Of a stretch of DNA of 64,000 bases, positions 3,316-52,116 are shown piece after piece. The DNA is from an uncultured Actinomycetes bacterium. GTDB taxonomy: Bacteria; Actinomycetota; Thermoleophilia; UBA2241. How positions within the stretch are numbered: the first letter of the stretch is position 1; each line of letters begins with the position of its first letter. The notes beneath the pieces are model-generated. The model saw only the letters and a list, made by a program, of their open reading frames with translations, did not search any database and had not been told where the DNA came from. Position numbers and translations under genes: made by a program. The stretch spans positions 13,590 to 77,589 of the forward strand of contig CAWJRV010000038.1 of assembly GCA_963845355.1 (NCBI GenBank), written 5' to 3'.

Positions 3316-4116
3316 GTGTCGATAGAGCTCGAGAAGGCCAAGGCGCAGATCGCGGCCGGACAGTACAAGCAGGCAGTGAGCACGCTGTGGGAGGCGGAAC
3401 GGTGGGCCCAGGGCGACCTCACCGAGGCCCACGGCTTGCTCGCAGTGGCCACGGCGCTGCGCGACAAAGCCGACGGACGGCTCAGGGGCGACTGCGACTA
3501 CTTCATCAAGTGGGCCGAAAGATGCATCGAAAAGGAGTCGGCGAAGCCTCTCGTCGCGCTCGCGGCCAATGCCATCGCGGTGGTCGGAGGCTGTAACGTG
3601 CTGGGTGGCCACGGACTGCCCCCGCAGGTCGGACAGTCGTGGAACCTCATCTTCAGCCGGGGCAGGCTTCACCTGGTACGCGGTCTGGTGATCGCCGATG
3701 TCCCCTACGCGGACATCGTCGCGCTCGAGATAGGCGGACCGGCCGCGCAGCGTCGCGGCGGCGGGTTCTTTGCGGGCGGGTTCGGTGTCACCGGAGCCGC
3801 CGAGGGGATGCTCGTGGCGGCGGCCTTGAACCTTCTGACGACCAGCACCACAGTCAGCACCGTCGTGTGTCTCATGACGTCGTCTGCCGAACTCTTCCTG
3901 CACACATCGAGCGAGACGCCGGACGACCTTCGCATGCGCCTGTCGCCGGTGTTCTCCGTCCTGCGACAGCAGGAGTCGGCTCAGGCCACAAACCAGGGCA
4001 ATGGCGGTGGCAGCGCCGTAGAGCGCCTGGCGAAGCTGGCGGGCCTTCTCGAGAAGGACCTGATCTCGCGCGAGGAGTTCGATCGGCTGAAGGCCGATCT
4101 GCTGCAGATCGTCTGA
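3316..4116 (+). CDS. hypothetical protein with C-terminal SHOCT domain
   Basis: ORF 266 aa. The C-terminus VERLAKLAGLLEKDLISREEFDRLKADLL matches the SHOCT short C-terminal motif. The middle part is Gly-rich and hydrophobic. Confidence 0.7.
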   Translation: MSIELEKAKAQIAAGQYKQAVSTLWEAERWAQGDLTEAHGLLAVATALRDKADGRLRGDCDYFIKWAERCIEKESAKPLVALAANAIAVVGGCNVLGGHGLPPQVGQSWNLIFSRGRLHLVRGLVIADVPYADIVALEIGGPAAQRRGGGFFAGGFGVTGAAEGMLVAAALNLLTTSTTVSTVVCLMTSSAELFLHTSSETPDDLRMRLSPVFSVLRQQESAQATNQGNGGGSAVERLAKLAGLLEKDLISREEFDRLKADLLQIV

Positions 4117-4171
4117 GCCGCGGCGTCGCCTCCCATCAGCGCCGGAACCTCCGCAACCGCCAGAACCCCCG

Positions 4172-17446: not shown

Positions 17447-17635
17447 CAGACCATGACCCCGTCTTCTGTGCCGAGCACTGGCGCCCGTGCTACCGCGCGT
17501 CACCATGGGCGGCGGTATGCTGAGGGGAGCGATGGGAGCGACGGGTCTTCGTGCGACGCTTGTCGACGGAGTCGCTGTGGGAACAATCAGACCGACGTAC
17601 CGGGCGCTGCAAACAGGCAAAGGAGGGAGTCGACG

Positions 17636-18427
17636 GTGCCACGACTTCTGCCAGGGCTCTCAGCCGAAGAGGAGGTCTCTCTCGCCAAGCGGATCGAGGC
17701 GCGTGACATGGCGGCCAAGTGCATGGTGGTCGAGGCCAATCTGCACCTGGTCGAGCCGGTGGCCAAGCGCTACGTCGGTCGCGGAGTCCCCTTGGCCGAG
17801 CTGATCCAGGACGGCAGCCTCGGCCTTATCCGCGCGGTCGAGACCTACGACTACCGCACGGGTACCGGATTCTCGACCTTCGCCCGACGCTCCATTCGCC
17901 TGGCCATCACGCACGCCATCGCCGAGCAGGCCAGCACCATCCGTGTCCCCAGACAGGTGATCGACGCGCTCGACGCCCTGCAGCGCGTCCGGCGTGCCGT
18001 GACGCTCAGACTTGATCGCGGGCCCGCCGGCGAACGCGGCGCCTCCACGAAGGCGACCTCGCGGAAGGCGCGTGAGATGCCCGGGAGCAGTGAAGGTCCC
18101 CGACCGGCGGAGGCGGCGCTCGACGACAAGGCGAAGAGGCGCCTCGACGACCTGATCGAAGACCAGCAGGCCGTCGACCTGCTCGAGGCGGTCGGCGAGA
18201 GCCTGCAGGCGGAGGAGCTGCGCGAGGTGCTGAACGCCCTCACGCCTCGCGAGCGCAGAGTGATCGAGCAGCGTTTCGGCCTGAAGAGCGAGCGCCTGCG
18301 TACCCTCGATGAGATCGGCAAGAGCCTCGGTCTCACCCGCGAACGCATCCGCCAGGTCGAGGCCAAGGCGCTCGTGGCCCTGCGAAGTTGCCGCGACTCG
18401 CGGCGCTTGCGCGAGTTTCTGATCTAG
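17636..18427 (+). CDS. sigma-70 family RNA polymerase sigma factor
   Basis: GTG after AGGAGGGAG inside ORF 17453..18427. Region 2 is LVEPVAKRYVGRGVPLAELIQDGSLGLIRAVETYDYRTGTGFSTFA. Region 4 is LTPRERRVIEQRFGL...TLDEIGKSLGLTRERIRQVEAKAL. Confidence 0.85.
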   Translation: MPRLLPGLSAEEEVSLAKRIEARDMAAKCMVVEANLHLVEPVAKRYVGRGVPLAELIQDGSLGLIRAVETYDYRTGTGFSTFARRSIRLAITHAIAEQASTIRVPRQVIDALDALQRVRRAVTLRLDRGPAGERGASTKATSRKAREMPGSSEGPRPAEAALDDKAKRRLDDLIEDQQAVDLLEAVGESLQAEELREVLNALTPRERRVIEQRFGLKSERLRTLDEIGKSLGLTRERIRQVEAKALVALRSCRDSRRLREFLI

Positions 18428-19964: not shown

Positions 19965-20072
19965 CGAAGTTGGCGTTGCCCGCGACGCACCCATCAACGC
20001 ATGAAGAGCTGTCATTCTGCGATGCTCCTTGTACTATGGTGACGAGACATCGAGCCATGTTTGGGGGGCGTC

Positions 20073-22799
20073 ATGAGACGGATCCGGGCCGCGGTCCTTG
20101 CCACTATCGCACTGGCGTGTCTGGGGGCCGTCGCGGCTCCAGCCGCCCGTGCCTTCGCACCCGACGGCAACCAGGGCTGGTACTGGCAGATGCCCCAGCC
20201 GGGGGGAACTCTCGTCGATGTCACCTTCGTCGACGCAAGCGACGTGTGGGCCGTTGGCGTGGGCGGCGCCATCCTGCACAGCACCGATGCCGGAGCGACG
20301 TGGTCCGCACAGCAGTCCGGCACTCTCGCTGAGCTCGACTCCGTCAGCTTCGTCGATGCGCAACACGGCTGGGTCTGCGGTAACTCCGATCTGTTGGAAC
20401 CCGGGGTCGGCACGTTGCTTGCCACGACCGACGGTGGTGTGAGCTGGACCGATAGCACACCGAGCGGTCTGGGTACGGCGCTGACCAACGTGAGCTTCGT
20501 CGACGCGCAGCACGGCTGGGTCGGAACCTCGAGCGGCCACGTCCTTCGTACGACCGACGGGGGCACCTCGTGGGCGAGCGTCCGTGTCGGCAACTCCAGA
20601 CGCTTCCTCAGAGTCGACTTCGTCGACGCCGCCCACGGCTGGGCGTTCAACGGCGACACCGGCGCCCTGTGGCGCACCACCGATGGCGGCACTGTCTGGG
20701 GCAGGGTACACCGCTTCTATCGCAGAGACGACCAGATAGTGGGCGTCGACCTCGTCGACCGAAGTCACGGGTGGGCGTACTCCGTGACCTATGGTGAGAC
20801 CCTCACCACCTCGACGATCCTGGTCACAAGGGATGCCGGCAAGACCTGGCGACCCGTGCGCTCGTTCGCTGCCTGCGCGATCGAAGATCTCGAGGGCGCG
20901 AGCCGCTCCGACGTAGCCTTTATCAGCCAGCGCCAGAGCGACAACGTCCCCGACAACTTCGGCGGGCTTGCGGCCCTCAGCTCCTCGAGCGACGCTGGAG
21001 CCCATTGGACGACACGTACCATCGGGCTCTCCGTCCAGCCCTGGTCGATCGCCGGTAACGGCGGCAACTCTCTGTGCGCCGTTGGCGACGGGATCGTGAC
21101 CTCGTCCGACGAAGGCGCCACGTGGCGCGGGGCAAGCTCCGGCCAGTTCTACTCCCTCGACGATGGCATAGCCGTCTCAAACACCGACCTGTGGGCTGTC
21201 GATGACTTCGGCGCCTTGCTGCACAGCTCAGACGGGACGAGCTGGACCGAACAGGCAACCCCTGTGCGCTACGCCCAGGAACTGCGTGCCGTGAGCTTCC
21301 CCGACACAAGCAACGGCTGGGTCGTGGGAGAGACCGATTCCTTTCCGCACAGGGGCGTGATCCTGCACACCACCGACGGCGGCGCGAGCTGGAGTCCGCA
21401 AGCTTCCAGCCTCGACGGCGAGCTCGTCGGCTGCGACTTCGTCGATGCCGCGAACGGCTGGGCTATCAGCGACGACCCTGGCGAGGAGACCGGCGCCATG
21501 ACGGCGATCGAACACACCACCGATGGCGGCCAGAGCTGGCTTGCGCAGCACCTGCCCAACCAGAGCGGTGGCGGTCTCGACGCGCTCAGCTTCATCAGCG
21601 ACAGCACCGGCTGGGCGGGAGGCGAGCGCTTTGGACCCGGCACCGCCGTGTACAAGACGACCGACGGTGGCCAGAGCTGGGCGCAGGAGAACCTCCCCAG
21701 CAAGATAGACAACCTGTGGGGACTTCAGTTCCTCGACGCCGAGCACGGCTGGGCGCTGGGCATGAGCTACTCGCAGAGCGGCACACCGACAAGCTGGCTC
21801 ATGCAGACCACCGACGGTGGCTCGAGCTGGACCCGGGTCACCCTGCCGAGCGCGGCATATTACTTGACCAGCGTCCACTTCGTCGACGCGCAGCACGGCT
21901 GGGTGGGCGGCGACGCCGTGTGGGAGACGACCGACGGTGGGGCGACGTGGACCAAGGTAGCCTACGGCGGCTTCGGTGCGATCGCGGCCACCGACACGAG
22001 CCACGTCTGGGCCTTTGGCGACGGCATAGTCTCGACGGTCGATGCCGGCGACATCGACGCTGCCCCGCCGCAGACCCTGGACAACGCCGACTGGCGCTGG
22101 CATCGCAGGCCTGTCACGATCATGCTTACCGCGAACGATACGGGTGGTTCGGGCCTGGCGGGGACGCAGTTCAGCTCAGACGACGGCACGACCTGGCAGA
22201 GCGGCACGAGCATCGACGTGCCGGCTCCGGCCGACCACGCCAACGACGGCCTGCACAGCTTCCTGTACCGCTCCTTCGACAACGCCGGCAACGTCGAGGC
22301 GACCGAGATCTGCGGGGTCGGCATCGACACCCTGGGACCGACCTGCGGCGCCCCCAAGGAGGCCGTCGCCGATGTCGGCAAGCCGGTCGTCATCCGCTTC
22401 AAGGCCAGCGACGCGACCAGCGGTGTGGCGCGGGCGACGATCACCATCGCCACGCGCGGCGGCCGGACCATCAAGCGGCTGGTCAGCCACTCCGGCAACT
22501 GGAGCGGCTCGCCCGTGCCGTACTACTGGCTACGTTTCACCTGCACGCTCGCGCCGGGCTCGTACCGGATCGTGGTGCGGGCCACAGATTGGGCCGGCAA
22601 TCGCCAGGTCACGGTCGGTCGCAACTGGCTGCGCGTGGTGCTCACGGGAGCACCGGCGGCCAGCAGCCCCGGCTGGCCGGCGGGACTGCCCGACACCACG
22701 CAGCCGACGAGCTCACCGGGTCCCGGGGGCCCCGTGGACGGACTCCTTGGAACATCGGCGGCGAGCTCGCTGCGGCACTACTCGTGGAAGGCCGGATAG
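20073..22799 (+). CDS. secreted multi-blade TTDGGxxW (BNR/Ycf48-like) propeller protein with C-terminal Ig-like domains
   Basis: MRRIRAAVLATIALACLGAVAAPAARA signal. About 14 repeats (STDAGATWS, TTDGGVSWT, TTDGGQSWA and others). The C-terminus is IDTLGPT...VVIRFKASDATSGVA...YRIVVRATDWAGN. Confidence 0.85.
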   Translation: MRRIRAAVLATIALACLGAVAAPAARAFAPDGNQGWYWQMPQPGGTLVDVTFVDASDVWAVGVGGAILHSTDAGATWSAQQSGTLAELDSVSFVDAQHGWVCGNSDLLEPGVGTLLATTDGGVSWTDSTPSGLGTALTNVSFVDAQHGWVGTSSGHVLRTTDGGTSWASVRVGNSRRFLRVDFVDAAHGWAFNGDTGALWRTTDGGTVWGRVHRFYRRDDQIVGVDLVDRSHGWAYSVTYGETLTTSTILVTRDAGKTWRPVRSFAACAIEDLEGASRSDVAFISQRQSDNVPDNFGGLAALSSSSDAGAHWTTRTIGLSVQPWSIAGNGGNSLCAVGDGIVTSSDEGATWRGASSGQFYSLDDGIAVSNTDLWAVDDFGALLHSSDGTSWTEQATPVRYAQELRAVSFPDTSNGWVVGETDSFPHRGVILHTTDGGASWSPQASSLDGELVGCDFVDAANGWAISDDPGEETGAMTAIEHTTDGGQSWLAQHLPNQSGGGLDALSFISDSTGWAGGERFGPGTAVYKTTDGGQSWAQENLPSKIDNLWGLQFLDAEHGWALGMSYSQSGTPTSWLMQTTDGGSSWTRVTLPSAAYYLTSVHFVDAQHGWVGGDAVWETTDGGATWTKVAYGGFGAIAATDTSHVWAFGDGIVSTVDAGDIDAAPPQTLDNADWRWHRRPVTIMLTANDTGGSGLAGTQFSSDDGTTWQSGTSIDVPAPADHANDGLHSFLYRSFDNAGNVEATEICGVGIDTLGPTCGAPKEAVADVGKPVVIRFKASDATSGVARATITIATRGGRTIKRLVSHSGNWSGSPVPYYWLRFTCTLAPGSYRIVVRATDWAGNRQVTVGRNWLRVVLTGAPAASSPGWPAGLPDTTQPTSSPGPGGPVDGLLGTSAASSLRHYSWKAG

Positions 22800-23085: not shown

Positions 23086-23175
23086 TCGCTGACATCATAC
23101 GCAGAGGAGCGTATGGTTTGATGGACGCCCCGCAAGGGCTCTCGGAGCCCCACGCAGAGCGACACCGCATCGCCG

Positions 23176-24366
23176 ATGCGGCGACGCATGGCGAGGAGGG
23201 GAGCCGCAGTGAGACGCTGGCTTATCACATGCACCATAGTGGCTTTGATCGCCGCGAGCCTCATTCTGCCCGGCGCGGCGCTCGCCCGCGCTGCCGCGCC
23301 GTCGGCGGCCAAGATGCGAAACATGGCGACGATCGGCCGGGCGCAGATCGCGGCCGGATGGTGGTGCGGCTACGCGATCCGGCCGAACGGTTCGCTGTGG
23401 TCCTGGGGCCTGAACACATCGGGCCAGCTCGGGCTCGGCGACACGAAGAGTCGGCGTTTGCCGACACACCTCGGCCGCAGCGTCGGCTGGACGACGATCG
23501 CTGCCAGCGATCAGCACTGTCTGGCAGTCAAGCTCGACGGTTCACTGTGGGCCTGGGGGGCAAACGACGAGGGCCAGCTGGGCATCGGTATCAATGGGAA
23601 GTACGGCAACCGTCCGCGGCTTCGCCCCCAGAGGGTCGCCGGTGGCGGCTGGAAAGCCGTCGGGGCCGGCTCCTCCGAGTTCAGCATCGGGCTCAAACGA
23701 GACGGTTCGCTGTGGGCCTGGGGCAACAACGATCACGGCGATCTGGGCCTCGGCACGACGAGTGACGTGCTTGGCAGTCACGCCGTGCCGACGCGCATTG
23801 GCACCGGCAGCGACTGGAAGGCGATCGCCGTCGGCTACGACTGGGTCTTTGCCCTCAAGAGCGACGGCTCGCTGTGGGCCTGGGGCGACAACAGTTCCGG
23901 CCAGCTCGGCTTGGGCACGACCGACGACCTCGCACATCCCACTCCGACACGTATTGGCAGCGGCCTCGACTGGACGGCGATCTGCGCCGACACCTATGCG
24001 ATCAAACGTGACGGCTCGCTGTGGTCGTGGAGCGGGACTTCGGTGCCGACGCGCGTCGGGACCGGAAACTCGTGGAAGAGCGTCGCCGCCGGGTTTGGAG
24101 ACGTCTTTGCCCTCAAGACCGACAGCTCGCTGTGGGCTTGGGGTGTCAACGGCGGCGGCCAGCTCGGCCTGGGCGATCGGGTCGCCCGAACATCGCCGAC
24201 CCGCGTGCGGGGCGGCTGGGCGAAGGTCGCCGTGGGGAACGCCTGGACCCTGGGACTCAAGTCAAACGGCACGTTCTGGAGCTGGGGGATCGACCACGCC
24301 ATGCAGCTCGGCCAGCCAGTCGTGCGCACGCGCGGAGTCCCGACCAGGATCTTCAGCCTCTCGTAG
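23176..24366 (+). CDS. secreted RCC1-repeat beta-propeller protein
   Basis: Signal/TM WLITCTIVALIAASLILPGAALA. Seven repeats of the type DGSLWAWGxNxxGQLGLGTT. Confidence 0.85.
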   Translation: MRRRMARRGAAVRRWLITCTIVALIAASLILPGAALARAAAPSAAKMRNMATIGRAQIAAGWWCGYAIRPNGSLWSWGLNTSGQLGLGDTKSRRLPTHLGRSVGWTTIAASDQHCLAVKLDGSLWAWGANDEGQLGIGINGKYGNRPRLRPQRVAGGGWKAVGAGSSEFSIGLKRDGSLWAWGNNDHGDLGLGTTSDVLGSHAVPTRIGTGSDWKAIAVGYDWVFALKSDGSLWAWGDNSSGQLGLGTTDDLAHPTPTRIGSGLDWTAICADTYAIKRDGSLWSWSGTSVPTRVGTGNSWKSVAAGFGDVFALKTDSSLWAWGVNGGGQLGLGDRVARTSPTRVRGGWAKVAVGNAWTLGLKSNGTFWSWGIDHAMQLGQPVVRTRGVPTRIFSLS

Positions 24367-28979: not shown

Positions 28980-29337
28980 CTCACCCCTTCGGAGAATCGG
29001 TCACGGCCAACAGTGATTGTGCAGACTGCATGACACCTGGTTGCAGCCTACGCCTTTCTGCGTGGGACGTCATCGCAGGCGGCGGCCGCCTCGGATGCAT
29101 CTGCGAGGCCACGGGGTCGAGGGCGCGGACAAGACCGGCGGCCAACGAACTCACCGACTGAGATCCAGCCGACGCGAGCCCGGGGCGCCCCGTTACCGCC
29201 GACCGACACTTTCTGGCGAAACTACGGTCTAATCGACCAACAATGATCCACTGCCCAGCCGGGATGGGACCGCATGGCATCTCTCAGACAGGCTCTGATG
29301 CCCGACCGGGTCCTCATGTTCCTGAAAGGACGCTGAG

Positions 29338-31251
29338 ATGAAGGGTGCAATCCGTTGCCTCCTGCCGACCGCGCTTGCGGTCGCCGTGATCGCCACGGCC
29401 GGGGGCGCGATCCTGGCTGCTCTCGCCGGTGCCGCCCCCCTCACCTCACCCGACGGTCTTTGGACCTGGTCGCGACCCCTGCCGTTCGGCTACCCGGCGA
29501 GTTCCATCGCGGCGCCGGCGCCCGGCGAGCTGTTCGTCGCAACTAAGGTGAGCGACCTCCTGGCCACCACCGACGGCGGCACGAGCTGGACGTGGAGTCG
29601 TACGGGCGCCGTGCCAGGCTTTGCCGAGCCGCAGGGCGTCCAGTTCGTTTCGGCGACCGAGGGTTGGGCGTGGGGCGTCGACACGACACTGCTGAACGGG
29701 ATGCTGCTCCACACGACCGACGGCGGGGCCAGCTGGCAGTCCAGCTTCACCGCGCCATCGCAGGTCGGGCCGCGGATGGTGCGCTTTGCGGGGCCGCTCT
29801 CGGGCTGGGTCGTGAGTGGTGACTACGAGGACTTCGTGCTCGACACCACGAGCGACGGCGGCCAGACCTGGAGTGGGCCCCTCGCCGTGCCGAATGGCGA
29901 CGGTGATTCCTTCGAGACACTGGCCCCACAGGGTGCCGGCAAGGCGGTCGTCTTCGAGGCGGTGTACGAGGCCGGTTGGGCAGACGGCGATTTCGTGGGA
30001 ACGAGAGTCGAGCGCACCACCGACGGAGGCGCCACCTGGCTCGCGCCCACGATGTTGAAGGGCGTCGAGTTCGTCGATGCCGCCTTCTCCTCGTCGACCA
30101 AGGGGTGGGCCACCGACGACAATGCAGGCTGCTGGCTGTGGCGTACCACCAACGGCGGGGCAAGCTGGCACAAGGCCCACCGGGCGATGCTCGGCGCGCA
30201 CATCCTCACGGTGGGCGACGATGTATGGGTGGTGAGTGCCGGCTCGAGCGGCTCTCTCCACTCATCCGACGGGGGCAGGACGTGGCAGACGCTGCCCCGA
30301 CTCTCTGCCTCCTGCATCTCCTTCTCCGACCCCTCGAACGGCTGGATCGCAGACGGCGCCGGCTATCGGCGCACGACCGACGGCGGCAAGACCTGGCAGC
30401 GCATCACTCCCGCTTCGCAAGAGACAGTCGGCAGCCTGGCGGCGGTCGGCGACGAGACGGTCTGGGGGGTCAGCGGCCGTGTCATAAAGACCACCGACGG
30501 TGGCCAGCACTGGAGATCTGCCTCCAAACGGCAGGTGGCGGCGTTGGCGGCGGTCAGCGCCCTCAGGGCGTGGGCGGTCGGTGACAGAGGCCTGATCATC
30601 CACACCACGGACGGTGGCCACTACTGGGCCCGACAGCCGAGCGGCGTCACCGTCGGCTTGAGCGACGTCTTCTTTCTCGACGCCAGGCACGGCTGGGCAA
30701 GCGGCGGCAACAAGCTGTTGCGCACCATCGACGGCGGACGCCGCTGGACCCACACGCACGTCGCGGTCCCGGCCGACATCAGTGAACTGGACTTCGCCGA
30801 TGCCCGGCATGGCATTGCCATCGACTCATCGCGCGGCATCCTGATCACGGGCAACGGTGGACGCACTTGGTCGAAGACGCAGCTCCCCGTCTCGAAGTAC
30901 CTGCCTACGGCCGCGATCATGCAGGACGCCTCTGACGCTCTGATCATCGCCTGGAGCCAGCTTGGCCCCGCTGCCGCCTGGACCACGAGCGACGGCGGCG
31001 AGACCTGGCAGCTCGGTGGCGATCTTCCTAACGACGATCGCTACGTCGGTATCGCCCGCTCCGGGTCGCTGCTCTGCGCAGTCGGCGGAGGAGTCCCCAC
31101 GAGCCGGGATGGTGGTGCGACGTGGTCCGCCGGCGGGGCGCCCCCAGGCGTCGCGATGACCAGCGCCCAGTTCGTGGACACCGACACGCTGATGGTCGCC
31201 GGCTTCTACGGCGTCATGACCAGAAACCTGACCACTGCGCCACTGCCTTGA
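29338..31251 (+). CDS. secreted multi-blade TTDGGxxW (BNR/Ycf48-like) propeller protein
   Basis: Signal MKGAIRCLLPTALAVAVIATAGGAILAALAGA. Repeats are TTDGGTSWTW, TTDGGASWQ, TSDGGQTWS, TTDGGKTWQ and others. Confidence 0.85.
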   Translation: MKGAIRCLLPTALAVAVIATAGGAILAALAGAAPLTSPDGLWTWSRPLPFGYPASSIAAPAPGELFVATKVSDLLATTDGGTSWTWSRTGAVPGFAEPQGVQFVSATEGWAWGVDTTLLNGMLLHTTDGGASWQSSFTAPSQVGPRMVRFAGPLSGWVVSGDYEDFVLDTTSDGGQTWSGPLAVPNGDGDSFETLAPQGAGKAVVFEAVYEAGWADGDFVGTRVERTTDGGATWLAPTMLKGVEFVDAAFSSSTKGWATDDNAGCWLWRTTNGGASWHKAHRAMLGAHILTVGDDVWVVSAGSSGSLHSSDGGRTWQTLPRLSASCISFSDPSNGWIADGAGYRRTTDGGKTWQRITPASQETVGSLAAVGDETVWGVSGRVIKTTDGGQHWRSASKRQVAALAAVSALRAWAVGDRGLIIHTTDGGHYWARQPSGVTVGLSDVFFLDARHGWASGGNKLLRTIDGGRRWTHTHVAVPADISELDFADARHGIAIDSSRGILITGNGGRTWSKTQLPVSKYLPTAAIMQDASDALIIAWSQLGPAAAWTTSDGGETWQLGGDLPNDDRYVGIARSGSLLCAVGGGVPTSRDGGATWSAGGAPPGVAMTSAQFVDTDTLMVAGFYGVMTRNLTTAPLP

Positions 31252-33263: not shown

Positions 33264-33629
33264 ATGTCAAGATTCTCACGCTGCCTTGCGATCGCACCGC
33301 TGGTCGCTCTCGCGATGCTCTCGCTCTCGTCCTGCGGCACGGCCGCGCCGGCGGCCCACAGCGGCGTACAAGGCATGGCGATGCTCGCGGGTGGACCGGC
33401 TCCGGGGAGCCCCCGGCCCGAGCCCGGCGTCGCTATCGCCGTCCATCAGGACGACCTCCACGGCACGATCGTGGCCCGGACCAAGGCGGGCCCCTCCGGA
33501 GCGTTCAAGGTCGACCTCTCGCCGGGCACCTACACGCTCATCGAAGGCTCCGATGCGGCTCAGTCTCAGACGATCGTCGTCGAGCCAGGCAAGTACATCA
33601 CGGTCACGCTCACGATCGATGCCCCATAG
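33264..33629 (+). CDS. lipoprotein, beta-sandwich type (paralog of 28188..28595)
   Basis: ATG after GGGAG. MSRFSRCLAIAPLVALAMLSLSSCG lipobox. ...FKVDLSPGTYTLIEG...IVVEPGKYITVTLTI. Confidence 0.65.
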   Translation: MSRFSRCLAIAPLVALAMLSLSSCGTAAPAAHSGVQGMAMLAGGPAPGSPRPEPGVAIAVHQDDLHGTIVARTKAGPSGAFKVDLSPGTYTLIEGSDAAQSQTIVVEPGKYITVTLTIDAP

Positions 33630-34170
33630 GCGCTGCTAGGACGGCACGAGGGCGGTGCTCTGCGGGTATGCAGTTGGGCTGCGACCAACCGCTGACGTGC
33701 ATGGTCAACCGCCGATTGTTGGCCTCGCCCACCTGGGTCGGGGAGTTCCTCTCCTTGCTGTCGCCCAAGCCGAGCTGCCCCTTCCAGTCGGCTCCCCAGG
33801 CCCATAGCGTGCCATTCTTCTTGATAGCGAAGCTGGAGCCGACGTCGCTTGCGATGGTCGACCAGTCACGGGCGGCACCGACTCTGGTCGGGCTGAGACG
33901 CGTCTCGGTGTTGCCCAGGCCCAGCTCGCCGACCTCGCCGCTGCCCCAGGCCCACAACGTGCCGTCTTTGGCGAGGGCCAGCGTGTGATCGTACCCGCCG
34001 GCGACCCTCAGCCAGTCGCTCGTGGCTGCCGCCGTGTGGGTTGCGGTCGCGGTGGCGCTTGCGCCGGGCGGTGAGGAGCCGACAGAAGCACTGCGATCAC
34101 CACACCCGTAGAGGAGAGGCGCGACAAGCAAGCCGGCACAGGCGAGCAGACGGACAAAAGTGCGTCGCAA
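33610..34170 (-). CDS. short RCC1-repeat lipoprotein (2-3 blades only)
   Basis: MRRTFVRLLACAGLLVAPLLYGCG lipobox. DGTLWAWGSGEVGELGLGNT and NGTLWAWGADWKGQLGLGDS. The C-terminal 40 aa are unlike RCC1. Confidence 0.7.
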   Translation of the reverse strand: MRRTFVRLLACAGLLVAPLLYGCGDRSASVGSSPPGASATATATHTAAATSDWLRVAGGYDHTLALAKDGTLWAWGSGEVGELGLGNTETRLSPTRVGAARDWSTIASDVGSSFAIKKNGTLWAWGADWKGQLGLGDSKERNSPTQVGEANNRRLTMHVSGWSQPNCIPAEHRPRAVLAAPMGHRS

Positions 34171-34363
34171 GAAGAACCTCCTTCAGCGGCCTGGTAGCCG
34201 ACTCTTCGACCGTGGTGTCGACAAGTCGGCGCACCGAGCTTAGGCCTGTCGAAAGCCCCATGGTTGGTCTGTTCAAGCCTTGGTTATCGGTGCTTGCGTG
34301 CGGGCAGGTCGTATGGCAGCGGCCATCTGCGGCCCCCGGGGAGCGCAGAGTGGTTGCGGTCCC

Positions 34364-37343: not shown

Positions 37344-37415
37344 CGAGAGGCACAGGGCCGGTCTCCTCTCGCCACGGTCACTACGGTTCACGTGCTCGCC
37401 TAGGTGGGTACAGTC

Positions 37416-37525
37416 GCGCAGTCTCCGAGTTCGGAAGTCCTAAGGGCGCAACGGCCTAAGGTGCCCGAGCCGGTAGGGTGCAGTGCGAAAGCGCCGTGCC
37501 TCCCAGTGCGGAAAGGAGATGGCGC
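37416..37525 (+). promoter_or_regulatory. Moco/Tuco-type (molybdenum/tungsten cofactor) riboswitch candidate
   Basis: The closing stem GCGCAGUCUCC / GGAGAUGGCGC encloses CUCCGAG, GCCCGAGCCGGUAGGGUGC, a GUGC-GAAA-GCGC hairpin, GCCUCCC and GGAAAGGAG. These are the conserved blocks of the Moco RNA motif as I remember it. It lies upstream of a molybdate/tungstate transporter. Confidence 0.6.
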
Positions 37526-37667
37526 CATCAAGACCAGCGTCGCTAGTAGAGGGGACCTACACACCGTGCTTCTTGCGGACGGTCCGCGTTTCGGCGGAAT
37601 AGCCGGTGTGGTGGCCAACCTTCCTTCGCGTGCCGGGGTTTCGTGAATCGCGGCAGAGGAGGAAGAG

Positions 37668-38685
37668 TTGCACGCATTCGATCGAACGAAAATGCCTCGC
37701 AAGTGGTTGGCCCGGGCAGCCGCGCTTTCTGCCGTGGTGCTCGTGGTCGTCGCTGCGGCCGCCTGCGGCTCGAGTTCGAGTTCGTCAGCATCCACGAGCC
37801 CCAGCCCGAGCGCGGCGACTGCCAGCAAGACCCTGATCGTCTTCGGCGCCGGCACGCTGGCCAACCCCTTCACCCAGGATGATCGCCGCCTTCAAGGCGG
37901 CAAATCCCGGCGTCACCGTGAACTCCCACTTCGGCGCCAGCGGCGACGATGTCAAGGATATCACCCAGCTCGGGCAGCCCGCCGATGTGCTCGGCGTCGC
38001 CGACTACTCGCTGATTCCCAGCGAGATGTTCAACGTCAACGGGAAGAGCTACGCGAGCTGGTACATCGGCTTCGTCTCCAACCAGATCACCTTCGCCTAC
38101 ACAGCCACAGCAAGGGCGCCGCGCAACTGACGGCCAGCAACTGGTACAAAGTCCTGGCCGAGCCCGGGGTGCGCATCGGTCGCTCCAACCCGGCGGCCGA
38201 TCCCTCCGGCTATCAGATCCTTCAGGCGCTCAAGCTGGCGCAGAGCTACTACCACGACCCGAACTTTCGGCCTCGGTGCTGAAGAACTCACCCAGCTCCT
38301 CCGAGGCCGAGACCGAGACCTCGTTGCTCGGCGCCCTGCAGAGCGGCCAGATCGACTACCTGGCGATCTACCGCTCCGACGCCCTGCAGAACCACCTGAA
38401 GTACATCCATCTGCCCGCCGCAGATCAGCCTCTCTGACCCCGCTCTGGCCAAGTCCTATGCGACCGTAAGCGTGCAGGGCCCGACGGAATGGTCACTGGC
38501 AAGCCGATCATCTACGGCTTGACGGTTCCCAGCAACGCTCCCAACTCGGCCCTCGGCGAGCAGTTCGTCGCCTTCGTTCTGGGCCCAAGGGCCAGGCGAT
38601 CATGCGCGCCAACGGTTTCGTGGTCATCTCTCCAGCGCTGGCCAGCAGCACGAGCGCCGATTCCGGCGTCACTCGAGCTCGCTGA
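37668..38685 (+). pseudogene. molybdate/tungstate ABC transporter substrate-binding protein (WtpA/ModA type), multiply frameshifted
   Basis: TTG after GAGGAGGAAG with lipobox VVAAAACGSS. The recognisable sequence hops frames: TLIVFGAGTLANPFTQ | MIAAFKAANPGVTVNSHFGASGDDVKDITQLGQPADVLGVADYSLIP...ITFAYTA | AQLTASNWYKVLAEPGVRIGRSNPAADPSGYQILQALKLAQSYYHDPNF | ...LLGALQSGQIDYLAIYRSDALQNHLKYIHLP | QISLSDPALAKSYATVSVQG | VTGKPIIYGLTVPSNAPNSALGEQFVAFVLGP | KGQAIMRANGFVVISPA. Confidence 0.8.
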
Positions 38686-38716
38686 CCAAGGCCGTGGCCG
38701 AAGTAAGAGCTGTGTC

Positions 38717-39606
38717 ATGACTGATTCTCGGGCCACCGCCGAACATCCAGGTGTAGCCGGCGGTGGCCCGGCCGACAGATCGGCGGGCCGGCGCCCGCCG
38801 CGGTGGCCTTCCGGCCTGTTCCAGGCACTGCTGTGGTTGGCTCAGCGGCTTGCTGATTGCCTTCATCGTGCTGCCCATCGTGCGCCTGGCGGCGACTTCG
38901 TCGCCCTCTAGCCTGATCAGCGCGGCAAGCGAAGCCGAGGTACGTAACGCCATCGTCTTGAGCCTGCAGGATGCGGCGATCACGGCCGTGATCGCCACCC
39001 TGCTGGGCGTGCCGCTTGCCTACCTGCTCGCCCAGCGTCGCATCCCCGCGCCCGGACTCGTGCAGGCCATCGTCGATCTGCCACTGGCGGTGCCGCACAC
39101 GGTGGCTGGCATCGCCCTGCTCGTTCTTGCTGGGGCGCACCGGCTGGGTCGGTGCCCCGGCGGGGCACCTCGGCGTGTCCTTCTACGGGTCACAGTGGGG
39201 CATCGTGGCAGCCATGCTTTTCGTCAGTGCGCCGTTTGCCGTCAACAGCGCGCGGGTCGCCTTCGAGGCGATCGACCCCAATCTCGAACGCGCCGCCCGC
39301 AGTCTGGGCGCCACTCGCGCGCATACCTTTCGTCGCATCACGCTGCCGTTGGGCGCCCGCGGCGTGCTCACCGGTGCCGTGCTGGTATACGCACGTTCGA
39401 TCGCCGAGTTCGGCGCTGTGGTGATCATCGCCTACTACCCTGTCACGGCGCCCGTCGAGATCTACAATCTGTTCCTGCGTTCCGGTCTGGCGGCTGCTTC
39501 GTCAGCCTCCGTGCTGCTGCTGATCGTGGCGCTGGCGACCTTCCTCGTGCTACGCACTCTGGCCTCTGGCCGCTGGCTGTGGATCGCTGACCGTGGCCCT
39601 CGCTGA
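38717..39606 (+). pseudogene. ABC transporter permease (molybdate/tungstate type), frameshifted
   Basis: Three frames are needed: MTDSRATAEH.. | LLIAFIVLPIVRLAATSSPSSLISAASEAEVRNAIVLSLQDAAITAVIATLLGVPLAYLLAQRR...VDLPLAVPHTVAGIALL | LLGRTGWVG...AMLFVSAPFAVNSARVAFEAIDPNLERAARSLGATRAHTFRRITLPLGARGVLTGAVLVYARSIAEFGAV (EAA-loop region). Confidence 0.8.
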
Positions 39607-40686
39607 CAGCGGCCTGGTCATCGAGGGCGTCAGAGCGCGCGCCGGCTCATTCGAGCTTGGCCCGATCGATCTCGACGTGAAATGTGATCGCGTGCTGGCG
39701 GTCCTCGGGCCCTCCGGTGCTGGCAAGACGATGCTGCTCGAGACGATCGCCGGCTTTCGCGCGGCTGCTGGCGGGCGCCATCTCGCCTGGGCGGCAGGCA
39801 GCTGGGGCGGCTGCCCCCGGAAGAGCGCGCCATCGGCTTCGTCTTCCAAAACGCAGCCCTGTTCCCGCACCTGTCGGTGCGCGACAACGTGGGCTTTGCC
39901 CTTCGCGCCCGCGGCGAGCGCCACTACGGCAGCGCGTTGACGCGCTGCTGGCTCGCTTCGAAATCATGTCACTTGCCGAGCGATCACCTGCGCTCACTGA
40001 GCGGCGGCGAGCGTCAGCGCGTGGCTCTGGCGCGAGCGCTGGCCGCGGCACCCGGGCTGCTCCTCTTGGACGAACCGCTCTCGGCGCTCGACCGACCCAC
40101 GCGCGACGATCTGCGCATCGTCCTGCAAGAGCTGCTTGGCGGACTGGGGATCCCGGCTATCCACGTCACCCACGACCGCGACGAGGCGCTCAGCATCGCG
40201 GACCAGGTCGCCGTCGTTGTCGCTGGGAAGGTTCGCCAACTGGCCGGTGCCCACGAGATCGTTGCTCAGCCGGCAGATGACACCTGCGCGCGGCTGCTGG
40301 GCTGGTCCGAGCTTGGTGTCGGACGCCTCGATCACGGCGTGCTGACGGTAGGTGCCCTCGTGCTCCCCGCTCACGGCGCTCTCGACGGCTGGAATGGTCC
40401 GGTCTCAGTCTTCTACCGGCCTGAGTCTGTGCTTCTGGGCGTCGAGGCCGCAGGAAACCCCGGCGGCGCAGCGTTCGAGGCCACGGTCGATCGCGTCCTA
40501 CCGACGACGCCGCTTGCTCGAGTCGTTCTTGGGGGCGAGACGGCCATGACCGCTCTGCTACTAGCACGCGACCTGGGGCCGCTGGACCTGCGACCTGGAG
40601 CATCAGTCAAGGTCGGGCTGCCGCCGGGCTCACTGTGCATCTTCCCGCTGGCTGATGTGCGCGACGGATCAGACCCGGTCGACTGA
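39593..40686 (+). pseudogene. ABC transporter ATP-binding protein, frameshifted
   Basis: Walker A LGPSGAGKTMLLETIAGF is in one frame. LPPEERAIGFVFQNAALFPHLSVRDNVGFAL is in a second. RVDALLARFEIMSLAERSP is in a third. It then returns to LSGGERQRVALARALAAAPGLLLLDEPLSALD...HVTHDRDEAL. The GTG start overlaps the permease stop. Confidence 0.8.
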
Positions 40687-40981: not shown

Positions 40982-41416
40982 ATGTTGTACGTAGCCAAGA
41001 GTGAAAGGTCGAGGACGATGACTGCTACCAAGTCCAACCTGGGGGAGCTGAATGGGGCGTGCCGCGCCGAGGCGATCAGGCTCGCGTTTCCGGAGCTCGT
41101 GTCGAAGCTGCAGGATCTGCTGACCCCACGACTCGTGGCCTATATCGGTTCAGTTGGTGAGACGCGCGCGGTCCGCCAGTGGGCGGAGGGCTCGCGAAAG
41201 CCGCAGGGTGACGTTGCGCGCCGGTTACGCGAGGCATACGCCCTCGCGTTGTGTATCTCACGAGAAGAGGATATCGAGGCAACTCAAGCCTGGTTTCAAG
41301 GGCTGAACCCGCTGCTCGGTGATGCTGCGCCTGCCCGGCTGCTTCGGGACGGCGACCTTGACAAGGTCGGTCCCATGGTCATCAGGGCTGAACGGCACTT
41401 CCTTGCCGAAGGGTGA
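40982..41416 (+). CDS. Xre/ParS/MbcA-type antitoxin (DUF2384 toxin-binding domain)
   Basis: 144 aa. ...TRAVRQWAEGSRKPQGDVARRLREAYALALCIS...EATQAWFQGLNPLLGDAAPARLLRDGDLDKV. The stop overlaps the GTG of the RES gene (GTGA). Confidence 0.8.
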   Translation: MLYVAKSERSRTMTATKSNLGELNGACRAEAIRLAFPELVSKLQDLLTPRLVAYIGSVGETRAVRQWAEGSRKPQGDVARRLREAYALALCISREEDIEATQAWFQGLNPLLGDAAPARLLRDGDLDKVGPMVIRAERHFLAEG

Positions 41417-42105
41417 CTCTGCTCCTCGACACCGAGGCGGCACCCACTACGCTCTACCGCGTGGGAAACGAACCGGACCCCTGGGATTGGCCGGGTTGGT
41501 CATACATCGGTGGTGAACGGTGGGATGACCCCCGTCGTGAATACCGGGTTCTCTACGCAAGCTACGATCGGGTCGGTGCACTTCTCGAGGTGTTCGCCAA
41601 GTTCCGGCCTGGCCTTGATCAGATAGTGAACGAGAGCGACCCGCATGCTGCGTCTCCCTTTCCAATGGGCGTTGTCCCTGTGGGCTGGCTGTCCCGACGA
41701 GTGATCACAAGGGGCGTCGCGTCCGGCGTGCATGGGCCGCTTGTCAAGGTGGGAGGGGAGCAGTCACTCGCGGCGCTTCGTCGTGCCTCCGATCTCGCCG
41801 CGCTGCTCGTCGCGCACGGGGTCGAGGACCTCGACACGAGCACGATCCGCAGCGCTGACGCAGACGTGACTCAGGCAATCTCAAGGGTCGTATTCGAAGA
41901 GATGCAGGCCAACGGGGACTCCTACGCCGGCATCTACTACCTCTCGCGGTACAGCGACAACGTTCCGAACTGCGCCCTTTTTGAACGCGCAACCGGAGCC
42001 CCTGTTTCGGTGACGCTCTTGGACCGCTCTTCAATCGATCCCGACGACCCCGATGTCAAGAAGGCCTGCTCGTTGCTCGACCTCGAAATGGAGCCGCTCC
42101 ACTAG
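41413..42105 (+). CDS. RES domain toxin (NAD+-targeting family)
   Basis: YIGGERWDDPRREYRVLYASYDRVGALLEVFAKF (R and E regions) and YAGIYYLSRYSDNVPNCALFE (S region). At 230 aa it is longer than the usual RES proteins. Confidence 0.85.
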   Translation: MTLLLDTEAAPTTLYRVGNEPDPWDWPGWSYIGGERWDDPRREYRVLYASYDRVGALLEVFAKFRPGLDQIVNESDPHAASPFPMGVVPVGWLSRRVITRGVASGVHGPLVKVGGEQSLAALRRASDLAALLVAHGVEDLDTSTIRSADADVTQAISRVVFEEMQANGDSYAGIYYLSRYSDNVPNCALFERATGAPVSVTLLDRSSIDPDDPDVKKACSLLDLEMEPLH

Positions 42106-42736: not shown

Positions 42737-43011
42737 CGTGCGCTCCGAAGTCGCAGTTGGTCACCTTATCGGCAGCGGGGGACCCTGGCGTGAGCCACTT
42801 GCCCGCTTCCTCGATCCGGTGGGCGGGTGGCCCACACTGGTGTCAACGAAGGGCATCAAGCCCAGGCCCATGCGCGTCTTGTGGGGCGTTCTGACGCGAC
42901 TTCGGCAACGGCTTGCTCCGTCGCATATTAAGCAAAGATTAAGAACAATCGTCATTGGTGTTACGCACGCCCTAGAGGCGTCTACGCGAAGGTTGCCGGG
43001 GCAGCCTGATT

Positions 43012-43098
43012 GCGAAGGCACGAAAGGCAAACCGCCTGTGAGGGCGGGGCGCAAAGCCACAGGACTCGGAACACGGGAGTCGGCTGGGTTGCCGCGGC
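43012..43098 (+). promoter_or_regulatory. c-di-GMP class I (GEMM-I) riboswitch aptamer
   Basis: GCACGAAAGGCAAACC-[CCGCC UGUGA GGGCGG]-GGCGCAAAGCC-ACAG-[GACUC GGAACACG GAGUC]-GGCUGGGUUGCCG. It matches the GEMM-I hallmark blocks (GGCAAACC, ACGCAAAGCC, GGGUUGCCG) and the two-hairpin layout of Vc2-type aptamers. Confidence 0.75.
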
Positions 43099-43120
43099 AG
43101 CGCGCGTGACGCTGCAGTAC

Positions 43121-43160
43121 GACCTGTGGCTAGCCGGAGAGGAGCCGCGGGTCGTTTTTT
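43121..43160 (+). terminator. intrinsic terminator (riboswitch expression platform)
   Basis: GACCUGUGGC (43121-43130) pairs with GCCGCGGGUC (43144-43153): 10 bp, two of them G-U. A 13-nt loop, then GUUUUUU. It sits 69 nt before the pilin ATG. Confidence 0.7.
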
Positions 43161-43228
43161 CGTGGTCACCTCGCAAACAGCAGGGTCTGTAAGGTTTCGA
43201 CTCGATTGCGAAGGAGGTGACAACTCAC

Positions 43229-43648
43229 ATGAAGTCATTCACCAAGACCAAGGGCGAAAAGGGGTTCACCCTCATCGAGCTCCTGATCGTGATCATCATC
43301 ATCGGTATCCTGGCGGCGATCGCCATCCCGATGTTCCTGAATCAGAGGGACAAGGCCAAGGACGCCGCCGTCAAGGAGGGCATCCACAGCATCCAGGTGG
43401 GTATCGAGAGCTACGCGGTCGACCACAGCGACGCCTTCCCGGGCACCATCACCGACAAGACGCAGCTCGTCGACGCCAACGGCAACAACTACGTGGACAA
43501 CTGGCCCAAGAACCCGTTCTCCACGACCGGCGCCTACATGCAGAGCGGTACCGACCAGGGCAACTACACCTACACCGACATCCCGGCCTCGAGCACCTTC
43601 ACGCTGCAGGGCCACCTGTCCAACAGCGGACAGTTCCAGGTTCCGTGA
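43229..43648 (+). CDS. type IV pilin (prepilin N-terminal cleavage/methylation domain)
   Basis: ATG after [43 protein letters not shown] is the class III signal. Confidence 0.9.
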
Positions 43649-43674
43649 TCCAGGTTCGTCTGGATTGAGTGCCC

Positions 43675-43710
43675 CGAGGGGGCGGCTCTGCCGGTGCAAA
43701 GCCGCCCCCT
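43675..43710 (+). terminator. perfect 12-bp hairpin between the two pilin genes (no U-tract)
   Basis: GAGGGGGCGGCT (43675-43686), a 12-nt loop, AGCCGCCCCCTC (43699-43710). Confidence 0.35.
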
Positions 43711-43758
43711 CGAACGAGCATCGTGCCGGCAACCGATGGACCAGGGAGGGCAGCTCAG

Positions 43759-44157
43759 ATGAGAAAGCGCGCAGGCCAAAGGGGCTTCACGCTCATCGAG
43801 CTCCTGATCGTGATCATCATCGTCGGTATCCTGGCGGCGATCGCCATCCCGATGTTCTTGAACCAGAGGAACAAGGCCAAGGACGCCGCCGTCAAGGGCG
43901 GCGTGCACGTCATCGAGCTCGGCATCGCAAGCTACGCCATCGACCATGCCGACACGTATCCGGTCGCAGTGTCGAAGGCTACTCTGCTCGACACCAACGG
44001 CAGCTCCTACGTCGACAACTGGCCGAAGAACCCGTGGACGAATGTCGACATGCAGGACAGCTCCAATCTCGGCGACTACACCTACACGCAGATCGGCGGC
44101 GGCACGAACTTCCAGGCCGTGGGCCACATGAGCAGCGGCGGTTGGACAGTCCCGTAG
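43759..44157 (+). CDS. type IV pilin, tandem paralog
   Basis: ATG after [53 protein letters not shown]. It shares YVDNWPKNP with the first pilin. Confidence 0.9.
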
Positions 44158-44478
44158 GCGCTGCCGTCGTGACGAGGCATCCGTCGGTCGTAGCGGGCTC
44201 GAACCGCGCTTCACCCAAGTCGACGAGCGGACGGCGCGGCGCGGCGCACAATCCTTCAGGCTCGCCGAGCCACTTCTGCCGTTGCCGTCGCTGGTCTCGC
44301 CCACAGCCCAGCCGTGAGAGGGCAGTAGCGTACCTGTTCACGCCGAACGTTCCGCGCCCATGGTAGCCACGCTTCCACGCCCGCTTCAACCGGGCCGGAG
44401 GACGCTTCTCCAAAGCGGGCTGCGAGTGTCGCTGAGTGTCGTCGGGGCCGCTCCGTACCATCTTCTAGCGCCACGTTC

Positions 44479-44507
44479 GGTTGCAGGAGGGTTGCAAGCG
44501 GGTTGCA
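44479..44507 (+). repeat. three GGTTGCA iterons at 11-bp phasing
   Basis: cGGTTGCAggagGGTTGCAagcgGGTTGCAgaa. The copies start at 44479, 44490 and 44501. Confidence 0.85.
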
Positions 44508-44567
44508 GAAGGCGTTCCGAGAACACCGAGAAATGCATAAAACACCTGCAAATACGCCTGAAATGGG

Positions 44568-44614
44568 TGGTAGCGCATACCGGATTCGAACCGGTGTTAC
44601 CGCCGTGAGAGGGC
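44568..44614 (-). repeat. duplicated 3' half of tRNA-Glu (att-type direct repeat)
   Basis: TGGTAGCGCATACCGGATTCGAACCGGTGTTACCGCCGTGAGAGGGC is identical to 52041-52087. It covers the stretch from the anticodon stem to CCA. Confidence 0.9.
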
Positions 44615-44730
44615 AGTAGCCTTGGTGTCAGGGAGTGCCGCCGAGTGCCTTCAAGTGCCATCTCACGCTTGGCAAACCGAACCGAATTGCCGCCGAGTAC
44701 CACTGAGCGCCACCTAACGCAGCTGCCTTC

Positions 44731-51591: not shown

Positions 51592-51951
51592 TGCGGCAGG
51601 ACGGCACCGATGTGGGCCGGTACCTGCTTGAGGCTACGCCGTTTTCGCTACATGATGGTGACCATGACCGACAGCAAACCACGGTGGTCGAGTCGTCTGG
51701 AGCGGCTCGTCAGGTCGGTGAGATTCCTACGCTGACCGCAGGGGCGTAACAGGAGCGAACGGCTCGGGAGCCAAATCCGTTACAGCGCGGGGTGTTCACT
51801 TTCGGGGCGGTCGCTATACCCCCGCTGAGCAGCCCGGAGGCTGGCGTGGTGGGCGACGTTGGAATCGGACCAGCGACCTCCACCGCGGGTGAGCGGTGTG
51901 CGGATGAGTGTCGTCGAGCGTCGCTCCGCGCCATCTTGTAGCGCGGATTTC

Positions 51952-51980
51952 GGTTGCAGACGGGTTGCAAGCTGGTTGCA
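51952..51980 (+). repeat. three GGTTGCA iterons at 11-bp phasing (tRNA-proximal arm of the island)
   Basis: cGGTTGCAgacgGGTTGCAagctGGTTGCAgag. The copies start at 51952, 51963 and 51974. Confidence 0.85.
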
Positions 51981-52040
51981 GAGAGGCTTCTGAGGCAGGC
52001 GAGAAACGCACAAAACCCCTGCATCTACGCCTGAAGAGGG

Positions 52041-52116
52041 TGGTAGCGCATACCGGATTCGAACCGGTGTTACCGCCGTGAGAGGGCGGCGTCCTAGGCC
52101 CCTAGACGAATGCGCC
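52041..52116 (-). tRNA. tRNA-Glu(CUC): tRNA-Glu, anticodon CUC, CCA encoded
   Basis: The reverse complement is GGCGCAT TC GTC TAGGGGCCTA GGAC G CCGCC CTCTCAC GGCGG TAAC ACCGG TTCGAAT CCGGT ATGCGCT A CCA. It forms a cloverleaf with a G1-U72 wobble and has the same architecture as E. coli tRNA-Glu. Confidence 0.9.

Follow-up and report, generated by a model that had tools for sequence, protein, structure and literature searches.

A class I cyclic di-GMP riboswitch upstream of tandem type IV pilin genes in an uncultured actinobacterium, with a predicted OFF mechanism by premature termination

A 64-kb stretch of DNA from an uncultured soil actinobacterium (Actinomycetota; Thermoleophilia), which we call the window and whose coordinates are used throughout, carries a class I riboswitch for cyclic di-GMP (c-di-GMP) upstream of two type IV pilin paralogues, designated here pilin A and pilin B. 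Working from the nucleotide sequence, we surmise that this riboswitch lies at the 5' end of the mRNA and probably controls both pilin genes by premature termination of transcription. The identity of the aptamer, the intrinsic terminator that follows it, the complementarity between the two, and their conservation with covariation among relatives are computed results, and it is on these that the proposed mechanism is built.

Searched in full against Rfam with the curated thresholds applied, the window gave three matches, namely a tRNA-Glu gene (52041-52116, minus strand), a molybdenum cofactor (Moco) riboswitch (37411-37534, plus strand) and a c-di-GMP-I element (43016-43096, plus strand). The last of these matched RF01051 (c-di-GMP-I, GEMM-I) over the full model (1-87 of 87) with 57.9 bits vs. 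a gathering score of 35 (E 9.9e-9), in agreement with a first-pass annotation that had proposed a GEMM-I riboswitch from the letters of the sequence; on re-reading 42800-43500, the sequence blocks and the two-hairpin layout described there were all found in their places. The core pattern GGCAAAC-N10-30-GCAAAGC has a single occurrence in the window, and 100 dinucleotide-preserving shuffles yielded none. The two hairpins are joined by GGCAAAC, CGCAAAGC and GGG(Y)UGCC, with covariation support for the pairs, and alignment to both RF01051 and RF03167 puts canonical residues at the ligand positions: G43026 at G20, A43053 at A47 and C43092 at C92. These three positions (Vc2 numbering) are established ligand contacts of the Vc2 structure. 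The first-pass annotation had offered the RF01051 search and the placement of the ligand positions as a way to overturn its own assignment, and both came out in its favor. Its label of "Vc2 type" did not survive, as the GUGA loop is present but receptor positions 51-54 and 68-69 of the model are deleted. The element thus resembles Vc2 of Vibrio cholerae in its conserved junctions and in G20/A47/C92 and differs in having no tetraloop receptor for its GUGA loop, so it is of another subtype. On short stretches, the c-di-GMP-I-GGC family RF03167 won the clan competition, though its 54.5 bits fall short of the gathering score of 59 for that model; after ACGC, the RF03167 consensus shows G and the window A43053 (A in all 56 relatives as well), so that the likeness to this variant, comprising nearly the same peripheral architecture and P1, resides in the periphery and not in the binding pocket. 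At position 20 the window has G43026 and not the A of GEMM-Ib, the class for cyclic GMP-AMP (cGAMP). We consider the element to be almost certainly a genuine canonical c-di-GMP-I riboswitch RNA. The aptamer is on the same strand as the pilin genes, about 130 nt upstream of the first pilin ATG (43229), which is about 210 nt from the aptamer start and close to the 215 nt estimated earlier.

Relatives of pilin A, sought in one genome per species, were found at 51 loci, all in metagenome-assembled genomes (MAGs) of uncultured Actinomycetota, 'Actinomycetes' or Thermoleophilia except for a short contig (L025) labelled Armatimonadota, and often with several pilin loci per genome. A family covariance model built from 42 aptamers recognized 56 homologous aptamers in the 51 loci plus the window, every one of them on the pilin strand, and scored the window aptamer at 82.5 bits; when 12 of the MAG loci were scanned with Rfam, 17 aptamers exceeded the gathering score. 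The prepilin motif GFTLIE lies within 330 nt downstream of 54 of the 56 aptamers, and the aptamer of L043 is followed by GFTLIEF, which is outside the motif pattern used, bringing those that precede a prepilin to 54-55 of 56. Counting P1, the GEMM-I structure on the alignment of 42 sequences comprises 24 pairs with 98.6% of cells paired and 8 pairs changed on both sides, values reached by none of 500 shuffles, and sliding the 3' partners by 1-3 columns left only 32-47% paired; compensatory changes were seen in three of the six pairs of the first aptamer hairpin. RNAalifold recovered the GEMM-I fold with P1 from an extended alignment, a short alignment having given a partly non-GEMM structure. 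Taken together, the covariation and the linkage to pilins argue that the aptamer is under selection as an RNA structure, and across this lineage the riboswitch is found almost only with pilin genes.

The family is not uniform at the ligand positions. Three aptamers from the clade of the window (L002:5192-5290, L003:633-729 and L007:5767-5863) have A instead of G at the G20 position, reading ...AAGAGCAAACC or ...AAAAAGCAAACC, with the pilin and the terminator otherwise the same. A G20-to-A change shifts GEMM-I to sensing of 3',3'-cGAMP in Geobacter, and A at position 20 is reportedly a cGAMP signature. In addition, six aptamers, located in 6 of the 12 loci scanned, passed the RF03167 gathering score (L022:1692-1766, L038:3103-3177, L010:5784-5858, L040:6586-6660, L004:1806-1888 and L047:6482-6556), each carrying the canonical A where the variant has G; the variant's G after ACGC was found in none of the 56 family aptamers. 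An annotation by clan competition would mislabel these six, and their scores suggest that the RF03167 seed may derive from closely related leaders.

The aptamer is followed by a G+C-rich hairpin (43120-43154) that runs directly into U6, with a computed stability of about -24 kcal/mol for the hairpin alone. The 10-bp stem reported by the first-pass annotation, GACCUGUGGC/GCCGCGGGUC, is part of this 12-bp hairpin and the U tract is present as well, but the spacer between aptamer and terminator, put at 20 nt, is actually about 24-27 nt, with no overlap between the two elements. A generic terminator scan did not list the hairpin because its 11-nt loop exceeds the 8-nt limit of that scan. Aptamer and terminator coexist in the minimum-energy fold of the full-length leader, and in all 43 relatives covered by our comparison of expression platforms, 5 nt or more separate the aptamer from a terminator-like hairpin downstream. 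Over 9 nt, the 5' arm of the terminator, CCUGUGGCU (43123-31), is perfectly complementary to AGCCACAGG (43055-63), which forms the 5' side of the second aptamer hairpin, and none of 200 shuffles of this arm paired as well with the aptamer strand; we regard this pairing as a candidate antiterminator. When the nascent transcript was taken to run from 43012 to 43131, 43136 or 43144, its minimum-energy fold was the antiterminator (-52.3 to -54.2 kcal/mol), vs. -45.3 to -47.4 kcal/mol for the same ends under an aptamer constraint; with the 3' arm of the terminator added, the leader returned to aptamer plus terminator. A second and clade-specific alternative pairing, read from the sequence, joins CCGCGGC (43092-98) with GCCGCGG (43144-50) and would also destroy the aptamer. 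In silico, the architecture resembles that of the Cd1 riboswitch, with a compatible aptamer and terminator and a candidate antiterminator that would exclude both.

The antiterminator pairing extends to at least 7 bp in 36 of the 43 relatives and is better than 95% of shuffles in 30 of them. Among the 37 relatives for which the 5' arm was counted, 29 have the core CCUGUGG, while no fewer than eight sequences, among them CCGCGGG, CCGCAGG and CCACGGG, serve as its partner in the 3' arm, mostly with G opposite the two U. An arm with a single partner would be free to go from U to C, and retention of U in the 5' arm fits an arm that also pairs with A of the aptamer strand; the pattern thus fits a terminator 5' arm constrained by two partners. 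At L022_1701 both strands have changed to match (CCACGGG with CCCGUGG), and by eye there is a matching change on both strands at L035_5685, with GCCGC facing GCGGC.

Two short blocks upstream of the aptamer may constitute its promoter. The pattern GTCTAG-N14-GGCA (42980-43003 in the window) recurs at fixed spacing before nearly every family aptamer, and it is also found before two pilin genes that have neither aptamer nor terminator (L021:5896-5919 and L027:5919-5942). Given their presence in the absence of an aptamer, the blocks are independent of the riboswitch and most simply a promoter, from which we infer a candidate start at about 43012-43015, just before P1. The locus L021 resembles its paralogue L019 minus the aptamer-terminator module, suggesting that the riboswitch may behave as a discrete module of insertion or deletion. 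No sigma-70-like promoter was found upstream of the window aptamer. Matches to a WhiG/sigma-28-type pattern (TAAA-N15/16-GCCGATAA, with up to two mismatches, within 90 nt upstream of the aptamer) were present at 23 of 55 family aptamers, against a background of 0.086 per kb, an enrichment of about 50-fold upstream of riboswitch-pilin units (e.g., L038:2156-2182); the window itself has no match within these 90 nt. A sigma-54 promoter was considered and rejected: GGCAGCCTGATTGC fits GG-N10-GC, but by eye count no more than about one third of relatives retain the -12 GC, and the implied start at about 43025 would remove P1, which covaries. We also rejected upstream GGCAACC as an RNA partner for GGUUGCC in the aptamer 3' strand, for which some agreement within clades is broken by L029 and L010; as the GGCA block also stands before pilins without aptamers, a promoter role is more likely than RNA pairing. 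Two repeats were noted in this region. GGTTGCCGGGGCAGC (42991-43005) is a near copy of the 3' end of the aptamer, GGTTGCCGCGGCAGC (43087-43101), which would allow a long alternative helix if it were transcribed, and the exact 11-mer GATTGCGAAGG is found both at 43008-43018, just before the aptamer, and at 43204-43214, just before the Shine-Dalgarno sequence.

We postulate the following sequence of events, assuming, as the canonical ligand positions lead us to infer, that the aptamer binds c-di-GMP. When c-di-GMP is low, the terminator 5' arm CCUGUGGCU would, immediately on its synthesis, invade the second aptamer hairpin and pair with AGCCACAGG, giving an antiterminator that blocks the terminator and lets RNA polymerase read into the pilin genes. 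When c-di-GMP is high, the ligand would lock the aptamer and leave the 5' arm free, whereupon the hairpin at 43120-43154 with its U6 would form and transcription would stop at about 43155-43160. Cd1 is an OFF switch whose aptamer and terminator can form side by side and have an antiterminator as their common competitor (PMC9262584), and it is the same arrangement, as predicted here, that leads us to an OFF design. The first-pass annotation had left the direction of the ligand effect undecided; we believe that it can be argued from the architecture, which predicts with fair probability that c-di-GMP turns pilin transcription OFF.

Several observations weigh against this scheme. Its sign rests on folding predictions, and the full-length terminator wins thermodynamically with or without the aptamer constraint, so an OFF switch would have to depend on kinetics. 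Among the 43 relatives, the antiterminator is the minimum-energy nascent fold in only 13, and only 23 have at least four U after the hairpin. The window copy has a weak P1 (2+2 bp), and a transcript starting upstream of about 43000 would form a helix between 43000-07 and 43086-93, extendable to 42978-43112, which is predicted to outcompete the binding pocket. Read-through need not mean translation, given that the ribosome-binding site is sequestered in every predicted state. Assembly frameshifts elsewhere in the window (in modA) imply that single-base details may be unreliable. Finally, the PilB of relatives carries a c-di-GMP-binding MshEN domain, and in other bacteria MshEN activates pilus assembly, which would be the opposite sign.

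If c-di-GMP promoted read-through, as it does at the class II switch of the C. difficile pilin operon or as the ligand does at Geobacter pilM, the MshEN domain and the 13 of 43 count would find a natural place, and there is precedent in the induction of C. difficile type IV pili by c-di-GMP (PMC11477304) and in the GEMM-type switch of Geobacter pilM, which is ON (PMC9262584). In ON switches of this kind, however, the terminator overlaps the aptamer and the two are mutually exclusive (PMC9262584); in the present leader, 24 nt separate the two and every fold has them side by side, and since both of the alternative pairings examined (43055-63 with 43123-31 and 43092-98 with 43144-50) destroy the aptamer, the ligand would favor the terminator. 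We therefore deem an ON switch unlikely. A different ligand, be it 3',3'-cGAMP or that of the c-di-GMP-I-GGC variant, would account for the success of RF03167 on short stretches and in several relatives as well as for the A20 aptamers of L002, L003 and L007, but the window has G20, A47 and C92, its RF03167 score is below gathering and none of the 56 aptamers has the G of the variant, which renders this possibility very improbable.

That the window carries a decaying or bypassed relic in an orphan copy, or an element acting mainly on translation or mRNA stability, would be in keeping with the weak P1, the lack of a recognizable sigma-70 or WhiG-type promoter upstream, the potential of the upstream segment to pair with the aptamer 3' strand, the ribosome-binding site sequestered in all states and the location of the cassette within a rearranged region (see below). 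Against such decay stand the intact aptamer core, terminator, U6, antiterminator complement, promoter blocks and both pilin open reading frames (ORFs), the 88-90% identity to the copies of the closest relatives and the 82.5 bits of the family model, and we rate this explanation as rather improbable. Chance resemblance to GEMM-I in G+C-rich DNA, for which nothing speaks beyond the high G+C content of the window, has already been refuted by the E-value of 9.9e-9, the absence of the core from 100 shuffles and the 56 covarying homologues before the same gene family, its residual probability being negligible; the match to RF01051 is not chance. The OFF switch by premature termination thus remains our preferred reading.

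The closest known counterpart is Cd1 of the C. difficile flgB operon (PMC9262584, PMC11477304), with which the window shares a class I aptamer, a separate intrinsic terminator, a competing antiterminator (here a predicted one) and an appendage operon as target; class I switches in C. difficile work in the OFF direction (PMC11477304). The two differ in that the Cd1 antiterminator takes the aptamer 3' strand, including the ligand-pairing C, whereas that predicted for the window takes the 5' strand of the second hairpin, and in that Cd1 serves flagella in a Bacillota host while the window, where function is predicted, serves pilins in a high-G+C actinobacterium. The c-di-GMP-II switch of the C. 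difficile CD3513-03 pilin operon (PMC11477304) likewise immediately precedes the pilin gene in a monoderm, but it is a class II aptamer of unrelated fold and an ON switch. With the pilM switch of Geobacter metallireducens (PMC9262584), our element has in common the aptamer fold, transcriptional control and a downstream type IV pilus gene; the pilM switch differs in sensing cGAMP, in a terminator that overlaps the aptamer to give an ON switch, and in regulating an assembly gene rather than a pilin. For the sister class Rubrobacteria, a reduction of type IV pilus transcription by c-di-GMP, exerted via RsiG-WhiG, has been described (PMC8325347). Rubrobacter's RsiG-(c-di-GMP)-WhiG system resembles the present case in this lowering, here a predicted one, and in the WhiG-type promoters at family aptamers, and is distinguished from it by a protein anti-sigma mechanism at initiation, with no recognizable WhiG-type promoter in the window. 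A riboswitch is mentioned neither in PMC8325347 nor in its 2026 follow-up, and no description of a riboswitch-pilin unit from Thermoleophilia or Rubrobacteria was found in the literature searched, the coverage of which was incomplete.

Neither the RF01051 class nor the control of pili by c-di-GMP is new; the additions made here are a predicted OFF sign with a testable strand-exchange mechanism, the near-exclusive association of this riboswitch class with pilins in a poorly known actinobacterial lineage, and its combination in relatives with a sigma factor of the pilus cluster and WhiG-type promoters. If the OFF sign holds, c-di-GMP would repress pilin supply at both initiation and elongation, opposite to the C. 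difficile paradigm. More tentatively, and as a proposition that we hold to be possible but on balance doubtful, class I switches may serve across the lineage as dedicated OFF switches for major-pilin genes within a multi-level c-di-GMP circuit. In that event: 1) the switch would precede nearly every pilin paralogue, at several loci per genome, in uncultured Thermoleophilia-like Actinomycetota; 2) the group-3 sigma factor of the cluster with the promoter block, the WhiG-type promoters and the MshEN-domain PilB would form further layers of the circuit; 3) a portable promoter-riboswitch-pilin cassette would keep orphan pilin variants under the same signal; and 4) a few copies, with an A20 (cGAMP-like) pocket, would have been switched.

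Features of the riboswitch-pilin region, in window coordinates
Feature	Position	Strand	Details
Upstream blocks GCGTCTAC and GGGGCAGCCT (candidate promoter)	42978-43007	+	GCGTCTAC 42978-85; GGGGCAGCCT 42998-43007 (GGCA 43000-03); 14 nt apart
c-di-GMP-I aptamer	43016-43098	+	RF01051, RF03167 alignment, family covariation
Sequence block GCACGAAAGGCAAACC	43018-43033	+	
P1	C43021-G43094, G43022-C43093, plus C43019/G43018 with G43097/C43098		outer pairs across internal loop; RF03167 alignment
P2 base	G43027-C43052, C43028-G43051	+	
First aptamer hairpin	43032-43047	+	CCGCCU/GGGCGG; GNRA loop GUGA 43038-41
Sequence block GGCGCAAAGCC	43048-43058	+	
Second aptamer hairpin	43055-43090	+	without tetraloop receptor; 5' strand AGCCACAGG 43055-63
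GACUC/GAGUC stem	43063-67 and 43077-81	+	
Sequence block GGCUGGGUUGCCG	43082-43094	+	
Small spacer hairpin	43097-43115	+	GCAGCG...CGCUGC; seen in folds, kept only in closest relatives
Intrinsic terminator	43120-43160	+	12-bp stem (43120-31 with 43143-54, two G.U), 11-nt loop, U6 43155-60
Anti-Shine-Dalgarno GUGGUCACCUC	43162-43172	+	inverted repeat, 11 nt, 91% complementary; pairs with 43214-43224
Shine-Dalgarno GGAGGUGA of first pilin	43213-43220	+	
Pilin A	43229-43648	+	139 aa; leader ends in G, then FTLIELL; PF07963 E 6e-9; TIGR02532
Intercistronic hairpin	43667-43715	+	13-bp G+C stem, 43675-87 with 43700-12; no U tract
Pilin B	43759-44157	+	132 aa; leader MRKRAGQRG, then FTLIELL; PF07963 E 2e-9; TIGR02532

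Both downstream ORFs have a basic leader ending in G, followed by FTLIE and a hydrophobic helix, and their matches to PF07963 and TIGR02532 confirm the tandem type IV pilin pair recognized earlier. Pilin A is 94% identical to its counterpart at L001, the closest relative; pilin B has no aptamer of its own, the whole window containing a single one. Within the leader, the Shine-Dalgarno sequence has an unpaired probability of 0.15 in each of three enforced states (free, aptamer and antiterminator), and we dismissed a state-dependent sequestration of the ribosome-binding site because the sequence is paired equally in all three folds, with no coupled translational switch seen. C/U-rich stretches like GUGGUCACCUC follow the terminator in close relatives as well. 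Between the two pilin genes, the segment 43646-43762 folds with -59.4 kcal/mol (z -3.4), and the hairpin there may serve in attenuation or mRNA stabilization.

The first-pass annotation had described the pilins as orphans in an accessory region, and for the copy in the window this description is apt: among the 41 ORFs of the window scanned, there was no pilus machinery, no GGDEF or EAL protein and no WhiG, and the local G+C content is about 62% vs. 64-72% elsewhere. The description does not extend to relatives, in which the unit lies within a pilus cluster. At L048:545-11900, for example, the gene order is pilB (with MshEN), pilT, pilC, a gene for a 246-aa group-3 sigma factor, the promoter block-aptamer-pilin unit once or twice, pilD and further genes with prepilin motifs; by tblastn the pilB-pilT-pilC-sigma...pilD cluster is present in about 27-31 of the 51 loci, and in 29 loci the sigma gene is immediately upstream of the riboswitch-pilin unit. 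We considered whether this sigma factor is WhiG and found it closer to SigB/F/G than to FliA/WhiG; similarly, a sigma factor within the window (17447-18424) proved to be RpoD/SigB-like instead of WhiG. Both forms occur together in the MAG of the closest relative, as a full cluster (L009) and an orphan copy (L001). The cassette of the window is an orphan paralogue of the promoter-riboswitch-pilin unit that relatives have in their main pilus cluster.

Several features besides the G+C content point to rearrangement of this region. Nucleotide homology to every relative is limited to 42998-44160, within which the cassette is 88-90% identical to the copies of its closest relatives. About 0.9 kb upstream of the riboswitch is an ORF for a RES-domain toxin (41413-42105), preceded by an overlapping 144-aa ORF of no recognized family in the antitoxin position, the pair spanning 40982-42105. 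On the other side, 290 nt downstream of pilin B and 7.47 kb from the intact gene, the 3' part of tRNA-Glu with its flank recurs over 177 nt at 82% identity, resulting in a direct repeat of tRNA-Glu(CUC) at 44449-44625 and 51922-52098, plus a 19-nt fragment at 44311-44329. This repeat beside the pilin cassette is possibly a scar of integration or duplication. It brackets about 7.3 kb that comprise small ORFs without a family match, several with N-termini resembling signal peptides, and a 451-aa ORF.

Elsewhere in the window, there are large proteins with BNR/Asp-box (YCF48-like) and RCC1 repeats at 1120-4212 (minus strand), 20043-22796 (plus), 29326-31248 (plus), 23122-24363 (plus) and 33613-34182 (minus), which are unrelated to the riboswitch-pilin finding. 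The Moco/tungsten riboswitch (RF01055, 37411-37534, 56 bits) is upstream of modABC-like ORFs (37668-40686), which were called from translations only. At least two breaks interrupt the modA frame, and ModA-like segments occur in two frames over 37668-38282, pointing to indel errors in the assembly or to a pseudogene.

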